Below, piece by piece: positions 7,146 through 26,674 of a stretch of DNA of 64,000 bases. The notes beneath the pieces were generated by a model, which searched no databases, had not been told where the DNA came from, and saw only the letters and a program-made list of their open reading frames with translations. This DNA is from Wickerhamiella versatilis. Taxonomy: Eukaryota. Position 1 is the first letter of the stretch, and every line of letters starts with the position of its first letter. Position numbers and translations under genes: made by a program. The stretch is from contig JAQOWU010000001.1 in NCBI GenBank assembly GCA_030867685.1, forward strand, positions 558,001-622,000. The letters run 5' to 3'.

Positions 7146-7324
7146 ATATGTGCATTCACATCTATGTTGTGGCTGCTCTCTATATGTAGGCCTATGCAAA
7201 ATAATCTATTACGCTGATCATAAAAAGGTATATAGGAGCAAGAATTTGAGGAAAGACAATGCAGAGAGATTTCTTTTTACAATTTGTTTGTTAATAGTAA
7301 AAAAATAAAAAAAAGGTTGCCGAA

Positions 7325-7397
7325 AACCCCACACGGGACTCGAACCCGCAGTCTCCCGCTTAGGAGGCGGATGCCTTAACCATTTGGCCAATGGGGC
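7325..7397 (-). tRNA. tRNA-Arg(CCT)
   Basis: GCCCCAT/GTGGGGT acceptor stem, A box TGGCCAAATGG, anticodon arm TCCGC-CT CCT AA-GCGGG, GGTTCGAGTCC T-arm, downstream poly-T. Confidence 0.93.
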
Positions 7398-7426
7398 TTG
7401 GTCAGCGTAGTAGTAGAAAATTAAGG

Positions 7427-9083: not shown

Positions 9084-10709
9084 CTAGACAGCACCATCGC
9101 CGGTGAAAACGCCCACTATCTTTCCAGTGAGCCTCTTTGCCGAGTTACTGATAGGAGATTTAGTTTCCACTGGATACTCCATCCGGCCTGTCTCGAGATC
9201 CACTTGACTCGCCGGTACCCACATAGGGCTTCGCCTTCTTATATAGAAATAAGCCCGCGCACCACAGTATATGATGACCAGCGCAACAAGTGATACAAAA
9301 TTAGCGAAGAAGTTCTTGGCCGAGGGCTTCTCTCCTAATGGGAATAGAGCAATGTAGAACTGAATGATCACAATTAGGATGCACCACGTGAGCCCGTATA
9401 AAGAGCCCCATATTCCGGACCACCCTCTCCAGGGAAGCTCAGAAAAGCTGCGACCCTGTGCCTTCCATGCTAATCTCATCCGAATATGACAGAAAAAAAT
9501 TGAGCTCCATACCCAGAGCGTGCACAGACTTGTTAGATTTGAGAACCAGCCAAACACATTTGCACCCGTCTCCGAGACGTTTAAATAGCTCAATCCGCCG
9601 CCAAAAACCAAAACAGCCAGGATTCCTGTCCATGGTCGGCCATGTTTATCAGTTTTATTGAGAATTTGCGGTGCGAGCCCCAGCTTTGCCAGTCCTATAA
9701 GCTGGCGGGAGCCACCGTATGCCTGTGCGCAGCCGGAAGATAGTGCGCTCAGTAGAATTATAGCATTCATACCATCACCAAGCCGCCGGATGTTAGACGG
9801 GCCGTCTTTAAATGCTATCACGAAAGGGGACGCGGAGCTACCGCTATCGCTGCCACCACCAAACAATTGTTTGTTATCGGGATCGACGGTTATAGTCACC
9901 ATTAGCGATCCGATGACGTAGAAGAGCCCGAGACGTAGGAAGGCAGAATTAACTGCCGGAGGCACTGAACGACGAGGATTTTTTACCTCTGCCGCTGCCA
10001 CCGCTATGAGCTCCGAGCCGGCAATGGCAAACACACAGGTGGAAAAGACGCTGAGGAGGCCTTTAAATCCATTAGGAAATGCGTTGAAGTTCCAGTAATG
10101 GAATCCGACATGGTTAGCCGCGGATACGTAGATGCAGCCCCCGATAACCACAAATATCCATAGCAGCTTCACACAACTCATTACTGATTCAGCCTCACCA
10201 AACACATTTGATGGACATGCATTGACAAAAACGATATATACCAGGAATATCGTGAGCCACGCCCCAGTGGGTACCTTATCAGTCCAGTAGCTAACCGCCG
10301 TGGTACAGCCCTGTAACTCATTTGCCAGGTTAATTGAGAAGGCGAAGAAGTAGCTGAACCCTAGGGTGACGGCGGCGGCAGGATCAAGGAACTTTTGGCA
10401 CCACTGCGGAAACGGCGATGGGACGGGGTAAAGTATGGATAATTCGCCAGCAGCCACGCATAAGAAGCATACTATTGAAGCAGCTATACAGTATCCGATG
10501 AAGATAGAAGCAGGACCTCCTGTGTGGAGCGATGTGCCGGAGCCGAGCCACAGACCCAATCCGATAGAATTTCCGACGCTAATCCACAGCAGGTGCCGAG
10601 TTTTCAAATTCCGCTTGAGACCTTGATCATTTTCAATAGTTCCTGCGTTAACATCTGGGTCAACCTCTTTTTCTTGGACGATTGCCACGTCCTTTTTTTC
10701 TGACCCCAT
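9084..10709 (-). CDS. Amino acid permease (APC/YAT family), copy 1
   Basis: LKRNLKTRHL, about 12 TM segments, GSELIAVAAAEVKNPR, SASPFVIA. Confidence 0.93.
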   Translation of the reverse strand: MGSEKKDVAIVQEKEVDPDVNAGTIENDQGLKRNLKTRHLLWISVGNSIGLGLWLGSGTSLHTGGPASIFIGYCIAASIVCFLCVAAGELSILYPVPSPFPQWCQKFLDPAAAVTLGFSYFFAFSINLANELQGCTTAVSYWTDKVPTGAWLTIFLVYIVFVNACPSNVFGEAESVMSCVKLLWIFVVIGGCIYVSAANHVGFHYWNFNAFPNGFKGLLSVFSTCVFAIAGSELIAVAAAEVKNPRRSVPPAVNSAFLRLGLFYVIGSLMVTITVDPDNKQLFGGGSDSGSSASPFVIAFKDGPSNIRRLGDGMNAIILLSALSSGCAQAYGGSRQLIGLAKLGLAPQILNKTDKHGRPWTGILAVLVFGGGLSYLNVSETGANVFGWFSNLTSLCTLWVWSSIFFCHIRMRLAWKAQGRSFSELPWRGWSGIWGSLYGLTWCILIVIIQFYIALFPLGEKPSAKNFFANFVSLVALVIIYCGARAYFYIRRRSPMWVPASQVDLETGRMEYPVETKSPISNSAKRLTGKIVGVFTGDGAV

Positions 10710-10909: not shown

Positions 10910-12520
10910 CTAGACTACGCTGTCCCCGCTAAAAAATCCAGCTAATTTACTGGCAAAAGTTTTTATCTTGTCATCATTTTTTGCTTCAAGATCTGGTGGA
11001 TACGCCATGCGACCTGTTTCGAGGTCTACTTTATCGGCCGGTACCCACATTGGGCTTCGAGTCCGCCAATAAAAGTAAATTCTCCCGAAACAATAAATAA
11101 ACACCAAGGCCACTATAGATACGAAGTTAGCAAAGAAATTTTTCGGCGACGGCTTGTCTCCTAGTGGGAATAGAGAAATGTAGAACTGAATGATTACGAT
11201 TAAAATGCACCAGGCAAGCCCATAGTAAGAGCCAAGAATCGTACCCCATCCCTTCCATGGAAGCTCCTTTAAGCTTCGACCCTGAGCCTTCCACGCGGAT
11301 CGCATACGGATGTGGCAAATAAAGATTGAACCCCAGACCCAGAGGGTACACAAGCTCGTCAAATTTGAGAACCAGGTGAACACATTAGCACCTGTCTCAG
11401 ACACATTAAGGTAGCTTAATCCGCCACCAAACACTATAATTGACAATATGCTTGCCCAAGGACGCCCTTGTTTGTCGGTCTTTGTAAATATTTTGGGCGC
11501 CAATCCTAGTTTGGCCATACCAATGAGCTGGCGAGAGCCTCCGTATGCCTGGGCACAAGCTGCAGACAATGCACTTATAAGTATGATAGCATTCATGGCG
11601 TCACCAAGTCGTTGGATATTCGGTTTGTCTTTGAACGCTATCACAAATGGAGAGGCATTATTACCGGTATCTATGGAGCCTCCAAACAATTGCTTGTTAT
11701 TTGGGTCAACCGATATCGTTATCATGAGAGATCCGATAATGTAGAAAAGTCCCAAGCGTAGAAACACTGAATTGACTGTAGGAGGCACTGACCGGCGAGG
11801 GTTCTTCACCTCTGCCGCTGAAATAGCTACGAACTCCGAACCAGCAATAGCAAATATACAGGTTGTAAATACACTCAGTAGGCCCTTGAATCCATTGGTA
11901 AAGGCATCAACATTCCAGTAGTGGAAGCCAATGTGGTTGCTAGCGGACACATAGATACATCCGCCAATCACCACAAAAATCCACATTAATTTCACAGCAC
12001 TCATTATAGACTCTACCTCACCGAATATATTGGAGGGAAATACAGAAATGATAACCACATACACTAGGAAGATGGTCAGCCATGCGCCTGTGGGCACTTT
12101 ATCTGTCCAGTAACTGACAGCCGTGGTACAGCCCTGAAGTTCGTTAGCTAATGTGATTGTGAAGGAGAAAAAATAACTGTACCCTAGGGTAGTCGCAGCA
12201 GCTGGGTCGAGGAACTTTACGCACCATTGAGGGAATGGAGATGGGACGGGATATAGAACTGCTAGTTCACCAGCGGCTAGACATAAGAAACACACAATAG
12301 AGGCAGCTATACAGTATCCAATAAATATCGCAGCGGGGCCACCATTGTGCAAAGAGCTACCTGCTCCAAGCCACAATCCCATTCCTACCGAGTTCCCTAC
12401 GCATATCCATAGAAGATGCCGAGTTTTCATATGGCGTTTTAGACCTTGGTCGTCTTCAACAATACCTGAATCGAAATCCTTTTCTTCGATAACTACCTGT
12501 TGTTTCTTGTCCGGTTCCAT
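10910..12520 (-). CDS. Amino acid permease (APC/YAT family), copy 2 (tandem paralog)
   Basis: Collinear with and highly similar to 9084-10709, e.g. shared LANELQGCTTAVSYWTDKVPTGAWLTIFLVY. Confidence 0.93.
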   Translation of the reverse strand: MEPDKKQQVVIEEKDFDSGIVEDDQGLKRHMKTRHLLWICVGNSVGMGLWLGAGSSLHNGGPAAIFIGYCIAASIVCFLCLAAGELAVLYPVPSPFPQWCVKFLDPAAATTLGYSYFFSFTITLANELQGCTTAVSYWTDKVPTGAWLTIFLVYVVIISVFPSNIFGEVESIMSAVKLMWIFVVIGGCIYVSASNHIGFHYWNVDAFTNGFKGLLSVFTTCIFAIAGSEFVAISAAEVKNPRRSVPPTVNSVFLRLGLFYIIGSLMITISVDPNNKQLFGGSIDTGNNASPFVIAFKDKPNIQRLGDAMNAIILISALSAACAQAYGGSRQLIGMAKLGLAPKIFTKTDKQGRPWASILSIIVFGGGLSYLNVSETGANVFTWFSNLTSLCTLWVWGSIFICHIRMRSAWKAQGRSLKELPWKGWGTILGSYYGLAWCILIVIIQFYISLFPLGDKPSPKNFFANFVSIVALVFIYCFGRIYFYWRTRSPMWVPADKVDLETGRMAYPPDLEAKNDDKIKTFASKLAGFFSGDSVV

Positions 12521-12607: not shown

Positions 12608-12858
12608 CTAGGTTGCATCGGATTAATTTACCACGTAGTCTTAGAAATTCTGTGCCCAGCAATACAGGAAATTTTTATAGCAGGCGCTTTAAAAGTTCGC
12701 CACATTCATAGGCGATGATGATGCGACATCATCCATCACCCTGTTCAGATTTTGGTGCCGTACAATGACTAAAAATGGGCAAAGATAAGCCCTTAGAACC
12801 CGGTAATTTTTTACTTCGAGCCATCCCCCGTGTATTAGTTAATTTCTCCTTGTTAAAT

Positions 12859-14823
12859 ATGAATGCACCAATTCTTGGAAGCGCATGGTACCCGGAGCAA
12901 TGGCCAGAATCTGTATGGGAGAGCGACTTAAAGTGGATGCAGGAAGCCCATGTCAAAGTTTTACGAATTGGCGAATTTGCTTGGAGTTCTATGGAACCTA
13001 AGGAAGGAGAATATGATCTTGACTGGTTGGAAGCAGCGCTGGATGCCGCTGCTCGCTATGGCATGACAGTTGTTTTAGGGACACCAACACCAACTCCTCC
13101 TGTGTGGTTGACGACAAAGTATCCAGATACTTTAAATGTTAACGATCATGGGGTCAGAGCTGAGCATGGTAATCGTCAGCAATTTTCTTTCGCAAGTAGT
13201 CGCTATCGAGAGCTTGCCTATAAAATTGTGCAACAGCTGGCACGCCGGTTTGGCAATCATCCCGCAGTCATTGGTTGGCAAATAGATAACGAAATTTCCG
13301 ATATATCTTTTGATTCCGAGACAAAATCCCAATTCAGAGCTTGGCTGAAGTCACGATATGGCGCAATAGATATTCTGAATGACTGTTGGGCCAACAAGTA
13401 TTGGAGCATGACTTACGATAATTTTGAACAAATACCAGTTCATGAGAGTGATCAAAACCCTGCATTGCTTCTAGATTGGAAAAGATTTGTCACTTATACA
13501 TGGAAATCGTATCTCAATAATCAGATTAGTGCTATTCGGGAAAGTAGTGATCCCCGCCATTTTGTAACCACAAACACAATGGGTTGGTTTACTGGTTTCG
13601 ATGCCTATATTGTACACGAACCTCTTGATATCGCGGCGTGGGATAACTATGTCGAAAATGAAGCATATGACTGGATGGATACTGCCTGCCGCCATGACCT
13701 GACCCGAGGCTTTAAGAATAAAAACTTCTGGGTAATGGAAACTGCACCCGGTTTTGCCAATTGGAAGCCTACTAATGTTGCATTGCGTAAAGGTCTTATG
13801 AGAAACATGGCCTGGCAAGCTATCGCACATGGCTCAGACGCCGTTCTTTATTGGCAGATGCGCAGCGCACCAAATGGCCATGAAACGTACCATGCCACTC
13901 TTCTAGGTGCTGATGGAACCCCAGTTCCGGGTTACTATGAAATCCAGCAATTGGGCGCCGAATTTGGCAAAGCAAGTAGAGCATTAGATGGAACATTTCC
14001 GTGTGGCAAGGTGGCAGTTATACACGACTATGAAAGCCGATGGGCAATCAATTTCCAGAAACATGCTGAGAAATTTGATCCTTTTATTGAAATGAAAGCA
14101 TTTTATACTCCACTAAGATCACAGGCCCAAGCCGTGGATATCATTTCCCCAACCACCGACCTTGCCCCATACAAGCTTGTTGTTGCACCTGCACTGAACA
14201 TACTTTCTGATGAGGTAGCTAGCAAACTTGAAGCATATGTCATGAGTGGCGGGCACTTGGTTCTCGGTCCTCGAAGTGGAATGAAAAATGTTCATAACGG
14301 ACTGCAACCTGCGCGGCAGCCTGGTCCACTAGTTGGTTTGCTTGGTGGAAGAGTAGAGCAATTTTATGCCCTTAATACTGAAGTGCCAGTGAAGGGTGCC
14401 CTAGGGAGCGGCACGGCTAATATCTGGGCAGAGCTTCTGCGAGAATTATTGCCTGACACAAAGGCGGTGCTGCGCTATGGCATGTCAAATGGTTGGCTGG
14501 ATAATCAACCAGCGGTTCTGACAAGACAGGTTGGTAGGGGAAGAATTACTTACGTTGGAGCATGGCTCGATAATGACCTGCTAAGCAGTCTTGTGCGTAC
14601 TTGGCTGCATGATGCGGAAATACGACCATATATTCCACAAGTCCCTAAAGACGTCGAAATTTCTTGCCGTACAGATGGGATTCGCCATATTTTGATCCTT
14701 ATCAGCCACAGCTATGCAACCAGAAGGGTTTGCCTTCCCCAGCCAATGTATTCTATACTTACTGATGAAGAGGAGACCACTGAAATAGTACTGGAGCCAT
14801 TTGAGGTCTTCATCTTGGTGTGA
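12859..14823 (+). CDS. GH42 beta-galactosidase, bacterial type (probable HGT)
   Basis: AWYPEQWP, RIGEFAWSSMEP, WQIDNE (acid/base), FWVMET (nucleophile), AIAHGSDAVLYWQMR, trimerisation domain; probable start is ATG 12859 (an upstream in-frame ATG exists at 12775). Confidence 0.93.
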   Translation: MNAPILGSAWYPEQWPESVWESDLKWMQEAHVKVLRIGEFAWSSMEPKEGEYDLDWLEAALDAAARYGMTVVLGTPTPTPPVWLTTKYPDTLNVNDHGVRAEHGNRQQFSFASSRYRELAYKIVQQLARRFGNHPAVIGWQIDNEISDISFDSETKSQFRAWLKSRYGAIDILNDCWANKYWSMTYDNFEQIPVHESDQNPALLLDWKRFVTYTWKSYLNNQISAIRESSDPRHFVTTNTMGWFTGFDAYIVHEPLDIAAWDNYVENEAYDWMDTACRHDLTRGFKNKNFWVMETAPGFANWKPTNVALRKGLMRNMAWQAIAHGSDAVLYWQMRSAPNGHETYHATLLGADGTPVPGYYEIQQLGAEFGKASRALDGTFPCGKVAVIHDYESRWAINFQKHAEKFDPFIEMKAFYTPLRSQAQAVDIISPTTDLAPYKLVVAPALNILSDEVASKLEAYVMSGGHLVLGPRSGMKNVHNGLQPARQPGPLVGLLGGRVEQFYALNTEVPVKGALGSGTANIWAELLRELLPDTKAVLRYGMSNGWLDNQPAVLTRQVGRGRITYVGAWLDNDLLSSLVRTWLHDAEIRPYIPQVPKDVEISCRTDGIRHILILISHSYATRRVCLPQPMYSILTDEEETTEIVLEPFEVFILV

Positions 14824-14940: not shown

Positions 14941-15498
14941 CAGCTTAATTTGACATTATAAAATTAGGATTATTTGTGGTGATCTTAAGTCCAAACATTA
15001 AGAATGATAAGCTCCCTTGCCCAGATAGCTGATAACGGCGACCTGTTTCACAGAGGACCCTACTCCCAGACGAGATGTCTAGAGACTGGATATCTTGCAA
15101 TATGTTCCCATCAGTATTTATTTCCGTGATGAAGCCAGCCTTCTACCCACGACAACCACTTAACAATTGAAAATGGCGATCAATCGATCGATATGCTCTA
15201 TCTTCTTCCTTTTCCTCTCTTCCTAGCCTAATTGATGGTAACATAAGTCGAGTACAGAGCGTTTCAGGGGATTTGTGGCGCTACACATTCTCGTCACGGG
15301 GCTGTTATTGGCAGAGCCATGATTAAGCATGTATATAGGGACTGAAACCAACGGTGCTGCAATTATTAGGGTGCTAAGTCTAGAGGTAATGGCGTTTAAT
15401 GAAGTACATTTACAATAAAGAAGTAAGGAATTTTAGCAGAACTTTGAGAAGGATATGCAGCTTAATTTAACATTATAAAATTAGGATTACGTATGGTG
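14941..15498 (+). repeat. Imperfect 41-bp direct repeats at 14941-14981 and 15458-15498
   Basis: cagcttaatttgacattataaaattaggattatttgtggtg vs cagcttaatttaacattataaaattaggattacgtatggtg. Confidence 0.85.
15002..15062 (+). repeat. Diverged copy of the permease-1 upstream region (10725-10786)
   Basis: gaatgataa..cccttgccca....gctgataac.gcg...tgtttcacaga(a)ggacc.ta is shared by both sites. Confidence 0.8.
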
Positions 15499-15715
15499 TT
15501 CCACCGATCAAGTCTAATGTAGAGAAAAGCATCAAAAGCGAACACTCTAGAGTCCGCTACAGTTTTAGAGTATGCGGTGGTAATGGTTACACCACATGCT
15601 TATCGATCGGTGGGTCGGGTTAGGGTTGATAAATTGGCGGGACCACCGCGCGGTGTAGCACTTGGTGGGGCGGGGTGTGTATATAATAGGTCGCGTCCTG
15701 TCGCGACTTAGCAAC

Positions 15716-18700
15716 ATGTCTGACCCCAAGTATCGGCGTGACCTGTACAAGTGCCGGTCAGAGGATGACCATATTGAGAAAGAGGGCGACGAGTACGTGT
15801 GTGGATTTGAAGGATGTGGGAAGCGGTTCTCGTCAAAAAGCCTCAACATTGCGCGGCACCATGTGCTCAGTTCCCATATGGGGGGCACGAGGTACCAGTG
15901 CACACAGTGCGACAACTCGTATGCGACCCCCAGCGCTTTGGAGAAGCATATGAAGGGTGTCCACGACAACAATCGAATCATGTGCGACGAGTGCAACCGC
16001 AGCGTTGCGGACTTAGCCGAGTTGGAACGCCACAAAAAGCGTAACCACTCCGGACCAAGTGAGCCCAAGTACCGGCGGAAGGGCCACTACGGAACGCAGC
16101 CAGAGGATGATCGCATTGAAAAGTTGGAGACAGGGTGGTACAAGTGCCAGCAGTGTCCTCAAAGGTTTTCGCCGAAAGACCTCCATCATGCCCGGAAACA
16201 TGTAGTTCGCCATGGGCCTGGCGAGCCTCGGAACGTACAGGAGGAGGAGGTTGTCCCTCCACCGTCCGAACCGTCAGTCTGGAGAGGCGGACCTCTCTCC
16301 TCATCACGCAATACGAATTCCAGAAGATCCGCTGGTGGAGGAGCGGCACCTGGAACCAGTGCCCATCGGTTCAATTGGGCAGCTTGGTTAAATCGTGGTG
16401 GACCAGACGGACCAAGCCCAAGCGGAGCAGGAGTGCCAAGCCTAAGCGGACTAGGAATGCCAGGTGGACCAGTGTCAGGTGGACCAGTGTCAGGTGGACC
16501 AGTGTCAGGAGTAACAAGCGAACCGGGCGGACTAGGAATGTCAAGCCCAGGCGAACCAGGAATTTCAAGTGGACCGGTGACAGGAGTGCCAAGTCCAAGC
16601 AGACTAGAAATGTCAAGTGGATCAGTGTCAAGCGGTATAGGAATGTCAAGTGGACCAGGCGAACCAGGAGTGTCAAGCCCAAGCGGGCTAGTGTCAAGCG
16701 AACCGGGAAGCTCTAAACTACCCGAAACATTTGGTTTCTATTTAGAAGACCAACATCTTGCGTTCAAAGACTCCCAGTACCATTGCTCATTCGACAATTG
16801 CACGAGGAAGTTCTCGCTCGCTGCTCTGTCCAAGGCCCGGGAGCATGTCAAGAGCACGCACCTCATACATCGTACATTCCAATGCATCGAGTGTGACCAG
16901 TCTTTCGATGGTATCGGCAGCTTTGAGCGGCACATGACTACGGTGCATCTGGGAAAAAAGTTTGCCTGTACCCAGTGCGATAAGAAGTATGCCGACAAGG
17001 GCGGGCTCGACCGGCATGTCCGCCGTGATCATCTCGGGACTGAGGGGCGAAAGTACCAGCGCAAGGGCCCGTTCAAGACCCAGCCGGAGGACGCGTACCT
17101 TGAAAAGCCCGGAGAAAAGTACCTGTGCACCTACGACGGATGCACGCGCCAGTTCTCCAAAAAGGACCTGCACAAGGCCCGCAACCATGTGGAGTTTATC
17201 CATCTCGGTCGCGGGAAGTTCCAGTGTCCTGTGGATGGATGTGATAAGGAGTACGTTGATAAGGCTGGCCTTGACACGCATACAAAAGTTGTACACCAGC
17301 ATCGAGAGTTTCAGTGCAGCGAATGCGACAGAAAATTCGGATATCAAAGCTCACTGGACCACCATATCAAGCTGGACCATAAAGGAGAGTTTTTACAATG
17401 CACCGAGTGCCCTAATACTTACAGGACGGTTAGTGGGTTGCAGAAGCATATATTCTCTGCCCACACCGACCAGAAGGCACATTGCTCGCAGTGCCCGCAA
17501 GAGTTTGCGGATTTGGGCTCATTAGGTAGGCATTTTAAGATAGCCCATACCTCCGACAAGGTCTATGCGCAGTGCCAATGCGGTAGGGAGTTCCAGACGG
17601 TGAGGGACCTGAACAAGCATGTGGAGCGCAAGAAGGAGTCGGCGCCTGACCAAGAACATGGCCGTCTTAATTTGGAGGACCGCTTGAGCGTCAAGGCGGA
17701 GGCGTTCAGTTCGGAAACCAAGGTCATCACTGCCAAAGGCAATGCGAAGTATGTGTGGGAGCTAGCAGAAGGCGAGGCTATCCAGTGCGGCAAAGGGAAA
17801 ATCGGCCATGTGAAAGAGGTACGGGGCTATGAGGGGAAAGGATATAGCGTGCTGCAAGTCACTAACCATCTTCTTGAGCCCTTGCATCCAGTGGACCTCG
17901 AGCGGTCGGACAGCGAGCTCCAGCTGCTATTTGGCAAGGCCGGGTTTGAAGGGGTACTTGAGAAGCCAGAAAGTGTGGAGGAAGGCCAGTCGTGGGGCGC
18001 CATGCTGCAGGTCGCGCCGACGATGGGCCGGCCAACAAGTGGGTGGTTCCGGCAGTTGTGTGAGGATAACGGGTTTAGTGGTGACCAGGTGTATGACGCG
18101 GCGTGGATCCTAGGCCTGTGGATAGGTGATGGTGCGTGGGACCGTCTCGATATTTGTTGCAATGCAGTTGATACGCAGGAAATCGAGCGTATTGTGGAGG
18201 CCGGCAAACGGCTAGGCTTCAAACCGGTTCTCAGGGAAAAGATTGTCACGGATAACCCCAAGCGAGAAGAGCCCTATGTGTCTTGTGTAAATGTGGCGTT
18301 AACTACCGAGCCAGCATGTGCTCCGAACCCGATGTGGGATGTGATCATGCAGTCGGGGGCCTGTGGCATCACTGATGGTGACTGGAAAGTGTTCCCCTGG
18401 CAATTGATTTATGACGAGGTTGAAATTGTGACATGGGTTATGGCAGGATTGATTGATAGTGATGGATATGTACACGACTACAGTTGGTTGCAGGCGAGTA
18501 TCAAGACTATTTATCCCAAGTTACGCGACAACATTCTAGAGGCTGGCCGTCTGCTGGGATGGGGGTGGTCTACGTCGACAGTTCCAGAAGGCCGGAAGAT
18601 GATTTGGGGTAGGGAAGCTAATTGCAAGGAATCCTACACTGTCACTTTCACCGGCGACGACCTGTCGAAAACTCTGTCCAAGTGCAACAATGCTCACAAG

Positions 18701-19066
18701 ACGCGCGACCTGCGTCACGAGAAGTCTAGCCCGCGCAGAAAGTTCTTCATGATTTTGCCGCTCCTACGTTCCATAGTTGCATATGTGGTCGTGCTCGAGG
18801 ATGAGACTCACGTGATGCTCGAGAACGGGCTAGTCGTCCCAGTTGTGCACGACCCGGGAAAGGGGATACGTATCATAGAAGAAGATAGAGAGTACGAAAG
18901 AATGCTACTCGAGATCTATGGGCAGTGCGACGAGGAGGAGCGTACTGAGAGGAACGCCCAGCTGAGGCCGCTCAAACGTCAAGGAGTGGAGCGAACGGAA
19001 CGGGCCCTGAATGAGAGGCGAGAGATTGAGGCATCGCGGTCCGAGAATGGCAATCAATTTGCGTGA
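15716..19066 (+). CDS. C2H2 zinc-finger array fused to a VDE/HO-like Hint-LAGLIDADG endonuclease (splicing-deficient intein derivative)
   Basis: 12 complete plus 1 degenerate C2H2 fingers; AFSSETKVITAKG Hint-like start at 17702; ILGLWIGDG (about 18107-18133) and MAGLIDSDG (about 18440-18466); MLENGLVVPV intein-C-like end (about 18844). Confidence 0.9.
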   Translation: MSDPKYRRDLYKCRSEDDHIEKEGDEYVCGFEGCGKRFSSKSLNIARHHVLSSHMGGTRYQCTQCDNSYATPSALEKHMKGVHDNNRIMCDECNRSVADLAELERHKKRNHSGPSEPKYRRKGHYGTQPEDDRIEKLETGWYKCQQCPQRFSPKDLHHARKHVVRHGPGEPRNVQEEEVVPPPSEPSVWRGGPLSSSRNTNSRRSAGGGAAPGTSAHRFNWAAWLNRGGPDGPSPSGAGVPSLSGLGMPGGPVSGGPVSGGPVSGVTSEPGGLGMSSPGEPGISSGPVTGVPSPSRLEMSSGSVSSGIGMSSGPGEPGVSSPSGLVSSEPGSSKLPETFGFYLEDQHLAFKDSQYHCSFDNCTRKFSLAALSKAREHVKSTHLIHRTFQCIECDQSFDGIGSFERHMTTVHLGKKFACTQCDKKYADKGGLDRHVRRDHLGTEGRKYQRKGPFKTQPEDAYLEKPGEKYLCTYDGCTRQFSKKDLHKARNHVEFIHLGRGKFQCPVDGCDKEYVDKAGLDTHTKVVHQHREFQCSECDRKFGYQSSLDHHIKLDHKGEFLQCTECPNTYRTVSGLQKHIFSAHTDQKAHCSQCPQEFADLGSLGRHFKIAHTSDKVYAQCQCGREFQTVRDLNKHVERKKESAPDQEHGRLNLEDRLSVKAEAFSSETKVITAKGNAKYVWELAEGEAIQCGKGKIGHVKEVRGYEGKGYSVLQVTNHLLEPLHPVDLERSDSELQLLFGKAGFEGVLEKPESVEEGQSWGAMLQVAPTMGRPTSGWFRQLCEDNGFSGDQVYDAAWILGLWIGDGAWDRLDICCNAVDTQEIERIVEAGKRLGFKPVLREKIVTDNPKREEPYVSCVNVALTTEPACAPNPMWDVIMQSGACGITDGDWKVFPWQLIYDEVEIVTWVMAGLIDSDGYVHDYSWLQASIKTIYPKLRDNILEAGRLLGWGWSTSTVPEGRKMIWGREANCKESYTVTFTGDDLSKTLSKCNNAHKTRDLRHEKSSPRRKFFMILPLLRSIVAYVVVLEDETHVMLENGLVVPVVHDPGKGIRIIEEDREYERMLLEIYGQCDEEERTERNAQLRPLKRQGVERTERALNERREIEASRSENGNQFA
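16461..16509 (+). repeat. 15-bp tandem repeat x3 within a degenerate Gly/Pro/Ser minisatellite linker (about 16395-16715)
   Basis: caggtggaccagtgt x3 encoding GGPVS; recurring gtgtcaag, ggaccag and cgaaccagg units nearby. Confidence 0.85.
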
Positions 19067-19463: not shown

Positions 19464-19544
19464 GTCAAGGTGGCCGAGTGGTTAAGGCGCTAGCTTTAGG
19501 CGCTAGTATCTTCGGATTCGCGAGTTCGAATCTCGTCCTTGACA
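19464..19544 (+). tRNA. tRNA-Leu(TAG), intronless
   Basis: GTCAAGG/CCTTGAC acceptor stem, TGGCCGAGTGG, CTAGC-TT TAG GC-GCTAG, long variable arm, GTTCGAATC, poly-T downstream. Confidence 0.95.
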
Positions 19545-19820: not shown

Positions 19821-20752
19821 CTAGACATTTTCTGGCGGTGCCGCCATTTCGTAGTTTTCCGCGGCTGCCGAGTTCTCGGCGCAGAACCGCATTTGCAGGA
19901 CCATAAATGCGGCACCCACGAGGTCGCAGCTGATTGTGAAGGCCCCCGATATGATGAACGAACACTTTTGGATGTGCAGGTCCGAGGCAAGACAGAGCAT
20001 GCCATGGAGGACACATGCCACGGCAGTAACTATTCCCAGGGGCGAGGAGAGCCGGAGCTTGAGGTAGGCCGGGAACGTCAGGGTGGTGGCTACTAGCAAT
20101 GCCGATACCAGCAGCTGCGCGCGGTACACAGCTCATAGACTCACCGGCCAGGTGTCCATTTTAAACGGCAGAACAGGGACTAAGAATATGCAGGTCAGAA
20201 TAGTGCCGATAAGACGAGCAGGGCAAGGCATGGGGACTTCACAAACCTGTGTACGGTATCCTTCAAGGACCCAGAGGCGATGCCGACTAATAGCGAAAAG
20301 AGAAGAACAATAAAAGAAACCATAGATGAGCCCATGATTGGAAACACAACTATGTTGGAATTTGGGTTCTCAGAAACGAATTTCGTCACGTCATTACTGT
20401 CGGCTATATTCCTGTTTAGACACATCTTATTGAAGAAGTAGGCAATGGCCAGTAGCAGGGCATTGCATACCCATATTCCTGCAGCGCGATGCACGCCAAA
20501 GTAGTCCTTGGGCCTGTATATATGGTGGACTACCAGCGGGGGCAGCGATAAGATCAGGATAAACCACTTGAGCCTCAGGGCAAACTCTGCGGCTTCAGGG
20601 ATGACTGCAGAGCCGATGCCTACGATGGTCACATATAGCGGTTGGAAGAAAGAGGTAACGGTTGCCTTCTCAGCGTATGTGGGCCTGGGCTGTTCCCACC
20701 CATACACTAGACTTACTAACTTCAGATGCTTTGGGCTTCTGCTGCGTGCCAT
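19821..20752 (-). pseudogene. Disrupted multi-TM membrane protein gene (about 310 aa if repaired)
   Basis: Hydrophobic ORF from ATG 20752 continues after a frameshift near 20215 (LIGTILTCIFLVPVLPF...), then past an in-frame TGA at 20135-20133 into the 19821-20129 ORF. Confidence 0.55.
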
Positions 20753-21119: not shown

Positions 21120-21908
21120 ATGACCGGTAGAGTTGAAAATAAGATTGCATTGGTTACTGGCGGGTCCAAGGGCCTTGGCAAGGCGGTGGCGGAGTTGTTG
21201 GCCGAGGAGGGTGCCACGGTGTACGTGACGGACGTTGACGAGACGGAAGGCGTCAGGACGGTGGACGCGATGGAGCAGCACGGCCGCGATGTGTACTTCC
21301 TCCGGCACAATACGGCGGATGAGGGCGATTGGAAGAGAGTTTTTGAGGAGATCCGGGACCGGTACGGCCGGCTCGACATCATGGTCAACAACGCGGGCAT
21401 CGGCGTTTTCCAGAGCGTCGAGTCGGCGAGCCTCGAGGATTGGCGTAAGCTGCTCAGTGTCAACCTCGACGGCGTGTTTCTCGGCACGCGCTATGCCATT
21501 GAGCTCATGAAGGCCCAGGGGAGGGGCGGCAGCATCATCAACCTGAGCTCGATCGAGGGTCTGGTGGGCGACCCGAACCTCGCCGCGTACTGCGCAAGCA
21601 AAGGAGGCGTGAGACTGTTCAGCAAGTCGGCTGCGCTGGACGTCGCCAAGCTCGGGATCCGGGTCAACACGGTTCACCCGGGCTATATCGAGACCCCGAT
21701 GGTTTTGAACGCATGCAAGGCACTTGAGCCACACTGCGAGGACGCGCGGCAGACCGAGGCGTACCAGAGGCTCGTCGGGCAGCACCCGGTGGGCCATCTC
21801 GGTGAGCCTGCTGATATTGCATATGGCGTGCTGTACCTGGCCTCTGACGAGTCGAAGTTTGTCACGGGCAGCGAGCTCGTCATCGATGGCGGCTACACGG
21901 CACAGTGA
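21120..21908 (+). CDS. Classical SDR, bacterial 3-beta-HSD/cyclopentanol-dehydrogenase-like (probable HGT)
   Basis: TGGSKGLG, NNAG, SSIEG, YCASK, IRVNTVHPG, VTGSELVIDGGYTAQ; visibly GC-rich third positions. Confidence 0.88.
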   Translation: MTGRVENKIALVTGGSKGLGKAVAELLAEEGATVYVTDVDETEGVRTVDAMEQHGRDVYFLRHNTADEGDWKRVFEEIRDRYGRLDIMVNNAGIGVFQSVESASLEDWRKLLSVNLDGVFLGTRYAIELMKAQGRGGSIINLSSIEGLVGDPNLAAYCASKGGVRLFSKSAALDVAKLGIRVNTVHPGYIETPMVLNACKALEPHCEDARQTEAYQRLVGQHPVGHLGEPADIAYGVLYLASDESKFVTGSELVIDGGYTAQ

Positions 21909-24250: not shown

Positions 24251-26674
24251 CTAGAATAGCGCGACAAATGCCACGGCACCTAAGGTGTAAATCCCGAAAT
24301 GCTGTGGTTTAGCTGCCGCATTGTCAAATGGGATTGAGGACCTGCCAGATGCACCAGGCGAAGTGCTTTCTGGTTGAACAGCACCACCAGAAGCCTCGCT
24401 AGCCGTAGATACAACACCACCAGTGGCGCTTGAAACCTTGGCCCTAGGATTTTCACTCGAAGCCATAGGTGAGGGCTTTGTATACTCATTAGTGGCAGGA
24501 GACGAAAATGCTTCACTTGTGGCATCACAACTTGTAATCGTCAGCGTGGTAGGAGCCGTTACCGTATATGTAGATGAGCCGTGTGTGAATGTGGTCGGCG
24601 ACGGGCAATAAGTTGTATAGTAGGTAGTCTCTGCTGTTGTAGTCGCATACTCACTAGTGACAGAAGGTGAAAGAGCGTCACTTGTGGTATCACAACTTGT
24701 GATCGTCAGCGTGGTAGGAGCCGTTACCGTATATGTAGATGAGCCGTGTGTGAATGTGGTCGGCGACGGGCAATAAGTTGTATAGTAGGTAAACTCTGCT
24801 GTTGTGGTAGCATAAGAACCCGACACAACGGAGACGGAGCCCAGAGTGGTGCCACTGGAACTCGCCGATCTAGATGATACCAGCTTAGGAGGAACAGTGC
24901 TCGTACTATTCAAGCCAGAACTAGTGGGGGTAACACTGGAAATAGACATCGTGCCAGTGGATGACCTGGTGGAGATAGCAGAGCCTGTTGAGGATGACAC
25001 AATTGGAGTAGGAGATGAACTGTTAGAGATGGTCGACGACTCAGTCGAGGGAACAGAGACTGGCGATGATCGACTGGAATGGGCGGAATGTGTTCTACTA
25101 GAGATGGAGAGACTAGAAGATAGCGATGACACCGGGCTCGCAACGGACAGAGAAGAGCTGCTGGTATTCTTGCGTGGGACGGAAGAAGATGAAGTCATAG
25201 TCAAGGAAGCAGAAGACGATTTAGTGGAGGCCATCGAGGATGGCTTGATCGAAGCAGACGATGAGCTACTTGAAATGGTCGACGACGTAGTGGAAGGACC
25301 AGAAGAAGAGAAGTCAGTGGAGGCAGTAGGCACAGATGACGACGACTTGGTAGTGACAGAGGACGATTTATTAGATGATGTCGAGGATGGCTTAATCGAA
25401 GCAGACGATGAACTACTAGAAATGGTCGACGACGTAGTGGAAGGACCAGAAGAAGAGAAGTCAGTGGAGGCAGTAGGCACAGATGACGACGACTTGGTAG
25501 TGACAGAGGACGATTTACTAGATGATGTCGAGGATGGCTTGATCGAAGCAGACGATGAACTACTTGAAATGGTCGACGACGTAGTTGAGGGACCAGAAGA
25601 AGAGAAGTCAGTGGAGGCAGTAGGCACAGATGACGACGACTTGGTAGTGACAGAGGACGATTTATTAGATGATGTCGAGGATGGCTTAATCGAAGCAGAC
25701 GATGAACTACTAGAAATGGTCGACGACGTAGTGGAAGGACCAGAAGAAGAGAAGTCAGTGGAGGCAGTAGGCACAGATGACGACGACTTGGTAGAGGTGA
25801 CAGAGGACGATGTACTAGATGATGTCGAGGATGGCTTGGGCAAAGTTGAAGATGAACTACTAGAAATGGTCGACGACGTAGTAGATGAAGTGGAAGATAA
25901 ATCACTTGAACAGGTGGATGATATACTGGATGGAACAGACGACCATGTGCTTGTCCGAGAAGTGAGGCTCGCTTCAGAAGAGGTCATCGAAGTTGTAGAT
26001 GTCGAAGAAAATGTCGAGGACGATGAGCTACCATCGCATTTTACTGGCCAGCAATAACTAGACGCATCAGTCTGGGAGTTTCCATTGTTATCAACATTGT
26101 TGCAACCAGTTATGTAGTCGTAGGACTTGGCGTATTTCCACGAGTTACATTGGCTAGCTGCTGAGTTTGCAGTAAGTGAACACCAATCAAACTGAATCTG
26201 GAAATTTGGCATGCAAGCTGTGCTTCCACTAACATCCGCATTTATTTCTACTGATGCATGCCACTTCTTGGGGTTATCGATGATGTGAACATCTTCATTC
26301 AGTGAATAAAGAACAACTGTACTGTCTTGAGAGGACTGCAGTCCAATGATCTTCAACTCATCCAAAGCAGAAATATCCATATTGTCGTCCGCTTCAAACG
26401 ATATGGTCACGTTATAAGTGCTGCCACTAACAGGCGTAACTTCTGTAATGGAGATAGAGGCATTTGGCATGTTAGCCTGGCTCGCGTGAAAGCCAAAATT
26501 ATAATTTGGACATTTTTCATATATAGAGCAGCTATCACTGCGAGTTTCCAACGGCTTAGCCTCGTTAAAAAGCAACTCATCTGCTACTCTGACATTGGTG
26601 TGGGTGTCTGCACCAGCAGACACAGCATGGATGGTTGCTAAGAGACTGATGAATACCTCACGAAGTTTGATCAT
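24251..26674 (-). CDS. Flo11-type GPI-anchored adhesin
   Basis: Signal peptide, N-terminal Flo11-like domain (YNVTISF, LDELKIIGL, CMPNFQIQFDW), Ser/Thr repeats, YTTYCP repeats, hydrophobic GPI tail. Confidence 0.85.
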   Translation of the reverse strand: MIKLREVFISLLATIHAVSAGADTHTNVRVADELLFNEAKPLETRSDSCSIYEKCPNYNFGFHASQANMPNASISITEVTPVSGSTYNVTISFEADDNMDISALDELKIIGLQSSQDSTVVLYSLNEDVHIIDNPKKWHASVEINADVSGSTACMPNFQIQFDWCSLTANSAASQCNSWKYAKSYDYITGCNNVDNNGNSQTDASSYCWPVKCDGSSSSSTFSSTSTTSMTSSEASLTSRTSTWSSVPSSISSTCSSDLSSTSSTTSSTISSSSSSTLPKPSSTSSSTSSSVTSTKSSSSVPTASTDFSSSGPSTTSSTISSSSSSASIKPSSTSSNKSSSVTTKSSSSVPTASTDFSSSGPSTTSSTISSSSSSASIKPSSTSSSKSSSVTTKSSSSVPTASTDFSSSGPSTTSSTISSSSSSASIKPSSTSSNKSSSVTTKSSSSVPTASTDFSSSGPSTTSSTISSSSSSASIKPSSMASTKSSSASLTMTSSSSVPRKNTSSSSLSVASPVSSLSSSLSISSRTHSAHSSRSSPVSVPSTESSTISNSSSPTPIVSSSTGSAISTRSSTGTMSISSVTPTSSGLNSTSTVPPKLVSSRSASSSGTTLGSVSVVSGSYATTTAEFTYYTTYCPSPTTFTHGSSTYTVTAPTTLTITSCDTTSDALSPSVTSEYATTTAETTYYTTYCPSPTTFTHGSSTYTVTAPTTLTITSCDATSEAFSSPATNEYTKPSPMASSENPRAKVSSATGGVVSTASEASGGAVQPESTSPGASGRSSIPFDNAAAKPQHFGIYTLGAVAFVALF
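24525..24815 (-). repeat. Two copies (165-bp spacing) of the YTTYCPSPTTFTHGSSTYTVTAPTTLTITSC cell-wall repeat
   Basis: Near-identical DNA copies. Confidence 0.9.
25233..25885 (-). repeat. 147-bp (49-aa) coding tandem repeat, about 4.5 copies
   Basis: Anchor agaagaagagaagtcagtgg at 25301, 25448, 25595 and 25742. Confidence 0.93.

Follow-up and report, generated by a model that had tools for sequence, protein, structure and literature searches.

A stretch of 64,000 nucleotides from the yeast Wickerhamiella versatilis (assembly GCA_030867685.1, contig JAQOWU010000001.1, positions 558,001 to 622,000; hereafter the window, with all coordinates counted from its first letter) contains a single, uninterrupted open reading frame (ORF) for a protein of 1116 amino acids and about 125 kDa (15716-19066, plus strand). 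Its product is judged, with a probability of roughly 55%, to be a permanent chimera of 12-13 C2H2 zinc fingers and an intein-derived LAGLIDADG nuclease of the VDE type, in which the splicing (Hint) domain would be retained as a scaffold and the DNA-recognition region typical of PI-SceI would be lost. The full reading frame extends over 15662-19066 (+), and the ATG at 15716 is the likely start, followed by 1116 codons and a stop. The encoded protein consists of a C2H2 array, a vestigial Hint/LAGLIDADG domain and a helical tail. A Pfam scan of this protein recovered zf-C2H2 (E 1.9e-28) and PF05204 Hom_end (E 4.4e-16, 59.4 bits with a cutoff of 21.1) and no match to PF05203 Hom_end_hint; an NCBIfam scan of the same protein gave no match. 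A tblastn search across the window revealed no further copies of the gene, which is present only once.

The intein-derived domain spans 381 residues, from residue 663 (AFSSETKV, nucleotide 17702) to residue 1043 (LENGLVVPV, nucleotide 18844). It starts with a vestige of the N-terminal Hint part (17702-18019, +; residues 663-768), with alanine in place of Cys1 and devoid of block B and of the DNA-recognition region. A linker helix and the LAGLIDADG endonuclease core follow (18020-18736, +; residues 769-1007), aligning to PI-SceI residues 208-410, and the domain closes with block F/G-like C-terminal Hint strands (18737-18844, +; residues 1008-1043), predicted as strands and aligning to PI-SceI residues about 411-453. 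Beyond them, in the position of a C-extein, lies a tail of 73 residues (18845-19063, +) that starts with VHDP and is predicted to form long charged helices; comparable, weakly conserved tails occur in all five members of the family described below.

PI-SceI is the closest match of this domain in both sequence and fold. A phmmer search of the 381-residue segment against PDB returned five distinct PI-SceI/VMA1 sequences (E 7e-24 to 2e-22), pairing query residues 133-378 with VDE 208-455, while the N-terminal 93 residues aligned weakly, with 2-3 bits. A profile built from four family sequences matched VDE with E 3e-33 through two segments, profile positions 1-68 with VDE 1-68 (12.3 bits) and positions 170-424 with VDE 209-453; nothing in the profile paired with VDE 69-208. 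Comparison of a predicted structure with PI-SceI, suggested in an original prediction made from the DNA sequence, bore out the resemblance. When an AlphaFold model of residues 633-1116 (model 1, computed from a 16-row alignment, mean pLDDT 70.5) was compared with PDB by Foldseek, PI-SceI chains took each of the ten top places (E 1.5e-23 to 1.5e-19, TM 0.52-0.62). Far weaker matches came from archaeal VMA inteins and free LAGLIDADG enzymes, and complexes of the bacterial protein WhiA appeared among the distant fold matches (E about 1e-4). A search of the ESM Atlas led no further than unspecific LAGLIDADG/intein clusters from phages and archaea, with scores of 0.84-0.90. In model 1 the LAGLIDADG core has pLDDT values mostly of 75-96, with short dips to 57-65, and predicted beta-strands flank it on both sides, as in a Hint fold. 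The domain shares with PI-SceI the two-motif LAGLIDADG core, the flanking Hint strands, the block F/G-like strands and a block A region with the QxTxH motif at an identical offset. It differs in lacking Cys1, block B, the terminal His-Asn and the +1 Cys, in having an acidic interval about 70 residues shorter in the place of the recognition region, and in its location within a zinc-finger protein, from which it is apparently not excised, rather than within VMA1.

A word-indexed search of 5.8 billion clusters identified four relatives of 623-1985 residues (P0002 to P0005), the only ones among about 15 billion proteins, and all four contain N-terminal C2H2 fingers followed by Hom_end. P0002 and P0003 have 12 fingers each and form with the window protein one clade; P0004 and P0005, with four fingers each, form its sister clade. 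Identity to P0002 and P0003 amounts to 91% and 70% in the nuclease part and to 86% and 55% in the finger part, respectively. When 1.84 billion representatives were scanned in full with HMMER, 23 proteins were returned at E <= 0.001, with P0002 and P0005 as the only family members; an HO-like protein (E 1.5e-22) came next, followed by VMA1 inteins and WHO-like proteins. A search for forms of the nuclease that are split or lack fingers, at lengths of 30-622 residues, gave no match at E <= 0.001, in a word index so insensitive that it also missed the 583-residue HO-like protein P0006. An intein-less finger paralogue was sought with residues 1-660 as query (lengths of 363-1155 residues, best 8000 candidates scored); within the reach of the word index and the contents of the database, nothing was retrieved beyond P0002, P0003 and unspecific C2H2 proteins of animals.

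Loss of the splicing residues

The original prediction held that the splicing machinery had degenerated, and this was confirmed. The position of Cys1, read as alanine from the pairing of AFSSETKV with CFAKGTNV, is occupied by alanine in all five family members, and A663 and F664 are both invariant; in the same alignment VMA1 and RBR inteins have cysteine at position 1. A clear TxxH block B had not been seen, and indeed no residues of the window protein align with the CNAxHxLVLRT of its relatives. Block F is devoid of cysteine in all five members, the corresponding block of the window protein being RSIVAYVVVLEDETHVMLENGLVV.

The replacement of the terminal His-Asn was likewise upheld. HMMER pairs LENGLVVP with LANQVVVH, which places proline at the position of the histidine, and extending this register by hand for two residues places valine at both the Asn and the +1 positions. 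What had been missed lies just beyond the proposed end of the domain: three residues past the aligned intein end, proteins of the window clade read VVHDP, which MAFFT pairs with the VHNC of VMA1 inteins. P0004 and P0005 lack this motif, which may be what is left of a His-Asn-Cys after its change to His-Asp-Pro. The +1 residue is valine or proline in the window clade, depending on the register, and alanine in P0004 and P0005, so that a +1 nucleophile is found in neither register in any of the five proteins.

Class 1 inteins are described as requiring Cys, Ser or Thr both at position 1 and at +1; class 2 inteins, which start with alanine, as requiring Cys+1, the Thr and His of block B and Asp F:4; and class 3 inteins as requiring Cys F:4 together with Cys+1 (PMC4031507). 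The window protein lacks the position-1 nucleophile, the Thr-x-x-His of block B and the terminal His-Asn with a nucleophilic +1 residue that would define the first class, and also the Cys+1, block B and block F Cys that would define the other two. Since nucleophiles, block B and block F Cys are all missing, splicing appears to be excluded on chemical grounds. Given that the splicing residues are lost in five out of five members, the nuclease almost certainly remains covalently joined to the fingers, as had been supposed from the DNA.

Some residual autoprocessing, either through cyclisation of the aspartate in VVHD-P or through splicing of a class 2, class 3 or BIL-like kind, might nevertheless free the nuclease or the tail. 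The terminal Asn of inteins can be replaced by Asp, Glu or Gln, which can cyclise, and inteins with Ala1 do exist (PMC4031507), and it is precisely the His-Asp-Pro of the window clade that MAFFT pairs with His-Asn-Cys. The Thr and His of block B and the Asp F:4 of class 2 are, however, absent, as is the Cys F:4 of class 3; the His-Asp-Pro does not extend to P0004 and P0005, and in model 1 the last predicted strand stops before it. Processing of the class 2, class 3 or BIL type was therefore rejected for lack of the required residues, C-terminal cleavage at Asp-Pro is only remotely conceivable and would concern the window clade alone, and autoprocessing as a whole is very improbable.

Recognition region and endonuclease core

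In PI-SceI the recognition region is an accessory domain within Hint, located between block B and the return strands, and its role in the interaction with DNA has been demonstrated (PMC8966425). The apparent deletion of this region in the window protein, proposed in the original prediction from an N-terminal Hint part of about 106 residues up to LQVAP, is supported by more extensive measurements. LQVAP does occupy domain residues 102-106. The QxTxH anchor occurs at residues 52-56 from the start of block A in 13 of the 13 sequences compared, providing a common reference point. From residue 1 to LAGLIDADG motif 1 there are 133 residues in the window protein, P0002 and P0003, 169 in P0004 and 176 in P0005, and 201-216 in eight VDE, HO-like, WHO-like and RBR-intein relatives; counted from the anchor, the interval is 77 residues in the window clade, 113 and 120 in P0004 and P0005, and 145-160 in the eight relatives. 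The stretch of 77 residues in the window protein, which is 68-83 residues shorter than in these relatives, contains 5 basic and 14 acidic residues (net -9) and is modelled as a loop with one strand, mostly at pLDDT <50 in both AlphaFold models. A recognition region of the PI-SceI type thus seems to be absent: alignment, lengths and predicted secondary structure support it well as shortened, and it is in this sense that it may be called deleted.

In the endonuclease core, LAGLIDADG motif 1, AAWILGLWIGDG (18098-18133, +), and motif 2, AGLIDSDG (18443-18466, +), are invariant in the five family members, where they read AAWILGLWxGDG and AGLIDSDG despite a cross-clade identity of 29-33% (33-35% over the domain). 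Each motif carries an acidic residue, as in VDE-type homing endonucleases, the equivalents of PI-SceI D218 and D326 being both aspartate, at residues 805 and 916 of the window protein. The columns of D218, K301, D326, T341 and K403 (PI-SceI numbering) hold identical residues in five of five members; K301, K403 and T341, together with D229, are taken here to have catalytic roles in PI-SceI. With both LAGLIDADG motifs and the active-site Lys, Thr and Lys conserved, nuclease activity has probably been kept.

A protein of this composition might also be a nuclease-dead DNA-binding factor, in which a zinc-finger transcription factor has co-opted the LAGLIDADG/Hint part for additional DNA binding or for interaction with proteins, in the manner of bacterial WhiA. 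Twelve C2H2 fingers are typical of transcription factors, the equivalent of D229 is asparagine in the window clade, and WhiA complexes do figure among the distant fold matches, with the WhiA precedent being cited in the HO/WHO literature (PMC7282813). The two catalytic aspartates, like the aligned Lys, Thr and Lys, are nonetheless identical in all members at the low identity given above, and within the protein conservation is highest in the nuclease. When LAGLIDADG domains are co-opted, the catalytic residues are usually lost. Co-option of this kind is accordingly regarded as unlikely.

The domain could also be a decaying relic of an intein that went to fixation in a zinc-finger gene and ceased to splice while the host protein survived, its nuclease now drifting and functionless. 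The insert is indeed flanked, within a larger protein, by an 'N-extein' and a 'C-extein', its Hint part is degenerate and escapes detection as Hom_end_hint by Pfam, and the length of the N-terminal Hint region differs between the clades. The ORF is intact, however, and the LAGLIDADG motifs are invariant over deep divergence, whereas a useless, unspliced insert of 380 residues would be expected to decay or to be lost; moreover, no intein-free finger protein was found within the limits of the word index and of the database content. Such a relic is improbable, and retention of an active nuclease as part of a chimera is preferred.

Zinc-finger array and relation to HO and WHO

With the expression C-x(1-5)-C-x(8-16)-H-x(3-6)-H, 12 classical fingers were recognized at residues 29-166 and 357-611, assigning the protein, by its sequence, to the C2H2 class, whose hallmark is the repeated unit C-x2-4-C-x12-H-x3-5-H. 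Fingers 1-4 (15800-16213, +; residues 29-166), found by the expression and by Pfam zf-C2H2, are separated from fingers 5-12 (16784-17548, +; residues 357-611), found by the expression, by a low-complexity linker that is rich in Gly, Pro and Ser in translation (16214-16783, +; residues 167-356). This linker is encoded by DNA tandem repeats, with TRF arrays at 16412-16509 and repeat families D1-D3, and its length differs among the window protein, P0002 and P0003. Fingers 8-12 form one contiguous array. An atypical last finger of the form CxC...H (17573-17632, +; residues 620-639) ends 23 residues before the start of Hint; in it Q619, C620, C622, G623, E625, F626, H635 and K639 are invariant in all five members. 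It is predicted as strand-strand-helix in a second AlphaFold model (model 2), which includes fingers 8-13 and has a pTM of 0.43. In that model the confidently predicted fingers adopt the beta-beta-alpha form, and part of the array has pLDDT <50.

A leader sequence, PKYRR..G...TQPED..IEK, occurs in three copies at residues 3-28, 118-143 and 445-470 (about 15722-15799, 16067-16144 and 17048-17125 of the window), each standing before an unusual long-spaced finger (C-x4-C ... H-x5-6-H). A diverged fourth copy precedes finger 5, and a related leader is present in P0004 and P0005. The leader is covered by no Pfam family.

The protein would act as an active, rare-cutting DNA endonuclease, with the LAGLIDADG saddle reading and cutting a core site and the adjacent array, fingers 8-12 together with the conserved atypical finger, reading the flanking DNA. 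In this way the finger array would contribute additional binding energy and specificity, as the recognition region does in PI-SceI. That the fingers took over targeting from the lost module, as the original prediction had put forward, is plausible. As a likely origin, a VDE-like intein may have landed near the 3' end of a zinc-finger gene and later lost splicing, which would repeat, independently, the event proposed to have given rise to HO and WHO. The present protein may act as a selfish homing element or as a domesticated nuclease.

Several observations weigh against this interpretation. The asparagine in the D229 column of the window clade is one of them, P0004 and P0005 having aspartate there; elsewhere this column holds Asn or His in five WHO-like proteins and Asn in two of six other rows. 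The HO-like protein P0006 has an N-terminal part of 211 residues in addition to fingers, and HO still needs its fingers; since HO has both a recognition region and fingers, fingers need not be a replacement for that region. The sister clade, with just four fingers, also has a shortened region (113-120 residues), and model 2 shows no confident arrangement of fingers and nuclease.

HO and WHO have been described as the only known fusions of inteins with zinc fingers (Coughlan et al., PMC7282813, 2020), and their organisation as one not seen among other LAGLIDADG endonucleases (2026 preprint, 10.64898/2026.08.13.744650). Their fingers are C-terminal, GATA/Ash1-like CxxC repeats, exteins are lacking, and residues essential to HO cleavage are located in both the zinc-finger and the nuclease domains (PMC7282813). 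No description of a protein combining C2H2 fingers with a VDE-like domain was found in the literature searched. The window protein resembles HO and WHO in being a presumably non-splicing, intein-derived LAGLIDADG nuclease joined to zinc fingers, and it belongs to the same VDE-like group. It differs from them in its fingers, which are N-terminal and of the classical C2H2 type, and in its flanks, for HO-like and WHO-like proteins have N-terminal parts of 201-211 residues and no exteins, whereas the window protein has its 73-residue tail. The features that define the HO/WHO family are missing, and the window family forms a separate clade outside HO and WHO.

This separation was derived from a maximum-likelihood tree of the nuclease and C-terminal Hint region, built from 20 of 26 sequences over 275 columns, with P0014, P0016, P0017, P0021, P0024 and P0026 omitted as fragmentary, repetitive or multi-intein proteins. 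Four inteins in helicase-type (DEAD/ResIII, DnaB) or unassigned hosts served as outgroup. The five family members constitute one clade (support 100/99), HO-like and WHO-like proteins group together (89/94), as do the VMA1 inteins (92/94), and all of these with the RBR intein stand apart from the outgroup (100/100). The tree does not resolve the branching order among the family, the HO plus WHO group, the VMA1 lineages and the RBR intein. This last sequence, from P0015 (972 residues), is a VDE-like intein with the start CFAKGT and the end VHNC, located inside an IBR/Ariadne (RBR E3 ligase) protein, and it groups with the yeast VDE/HO lineages; to our knowledge, RBR E3 ligases have not been described as intein hosts.

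Since HO and WHO have been described as the only such fusions, the window family apparently represents a third lineage of intein-zinc-finger fusions, independent of the other two. A more ambitious version can be offered only tentatively, with odds somewhat below even: that this is a third, independent lineage of zinc-finger-guided intein nucleases of budding yeasts and the first with a classical C2H2 array, in which the fingers have functionally replaced the recognition lobe to give a natural zinc-finger meganuclease, and in which both flanks of the invaded gene have been kept. Engineered zinc-finger nucleases (ZFNs) and TALE-meganuclease fusions (megaTALs) likewise tether a modular DNA-binding array to a nuclease, thereby extending or redirecting its specificity. 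They are, in contrast, artificial, and ZFNs carry the non-specific FokI domain.

Genomic surroundings and significance

The window is gene-dense and budding-yeast-like, with genes for Flo11, RSC4-like and DOA1-like proteins, a GH72 glucanosyltransferase (presumably of the Gas1 type), aspartyl proteases and a dynein heavy chain. The Flo11-domain adhesin gene (24251-26674, -) includes tandem repeats of about 147 bp with 90-94% identity at 25210-25885, and two amino-acid permease genes form a tandem pair (9084-10709 and 10910-12520, both -) with 75% protein identity. A GH42 beta-galactosidase gene (12775-14823, +; PF02449, E 2.4e-117; no NCBIfam match) lies directly upstream of the chimeric gene in the same orientation; the GH42 family is mostly prokaryotic. 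Between genes, also upstream, a direct repeat of 44 nucleotides occurs at 14941-14984 and 15458-15501, its copies 89% identical and 517 bp apart. Within the window its 32-nucleotide core is confined to these two sites, against a chance expectation of 0, and the repeat could be a promoter element or an insertion remnant.

Two tRNA genes are present on either side, tRNA-Arg(CCU) upstream (7324-7398, -) and tRNA-Leu(UAG) (19464-19544, +) 398 bp downstream of the stop codon. Farther downstream, a short-chain dehydrogenase gene (21120-21908, +) is located in the 2-kb bin with the highest GC content of the window (0.55). It matched the NCBIfam model of a bacterial NADP-dependent (R)-specific alcohol dehydrogenase with 329 bits (E 1.6e-98), short of that model's cutoff of 400 bits, and may represent a yeast gene of bacterial type. 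WHO elements leave behind 3' pieces of the gene that hosts them; near the chimeric gene, no duplicated host-gene fragments of this kind were found. A match of 48 residues and 31% identity to the C-terminus of the short-chain dehydrogenase (19935-20072, -; E 0.029) was treated as due to chance.

The protein would be a natural counterpart of engineered zinc-finger meganucleases, apparently undescribed, and is of relevance to research into homing endonucleases and into how HO arose. If the proposed reading is true, there would be a repeatable evolutionary route by which zinc-finger genes capture intein nucleases, and the origin proposed for HO would become directly testable on a protein that still bears both 'exteins'. 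The family would also provide a natural scaffold on which C2H2 modules retarget a meganuclease. Its cut site, once located, could point to a homing element not yet known or to programmed DNA breakage in a yeast outside Saccharomyces.

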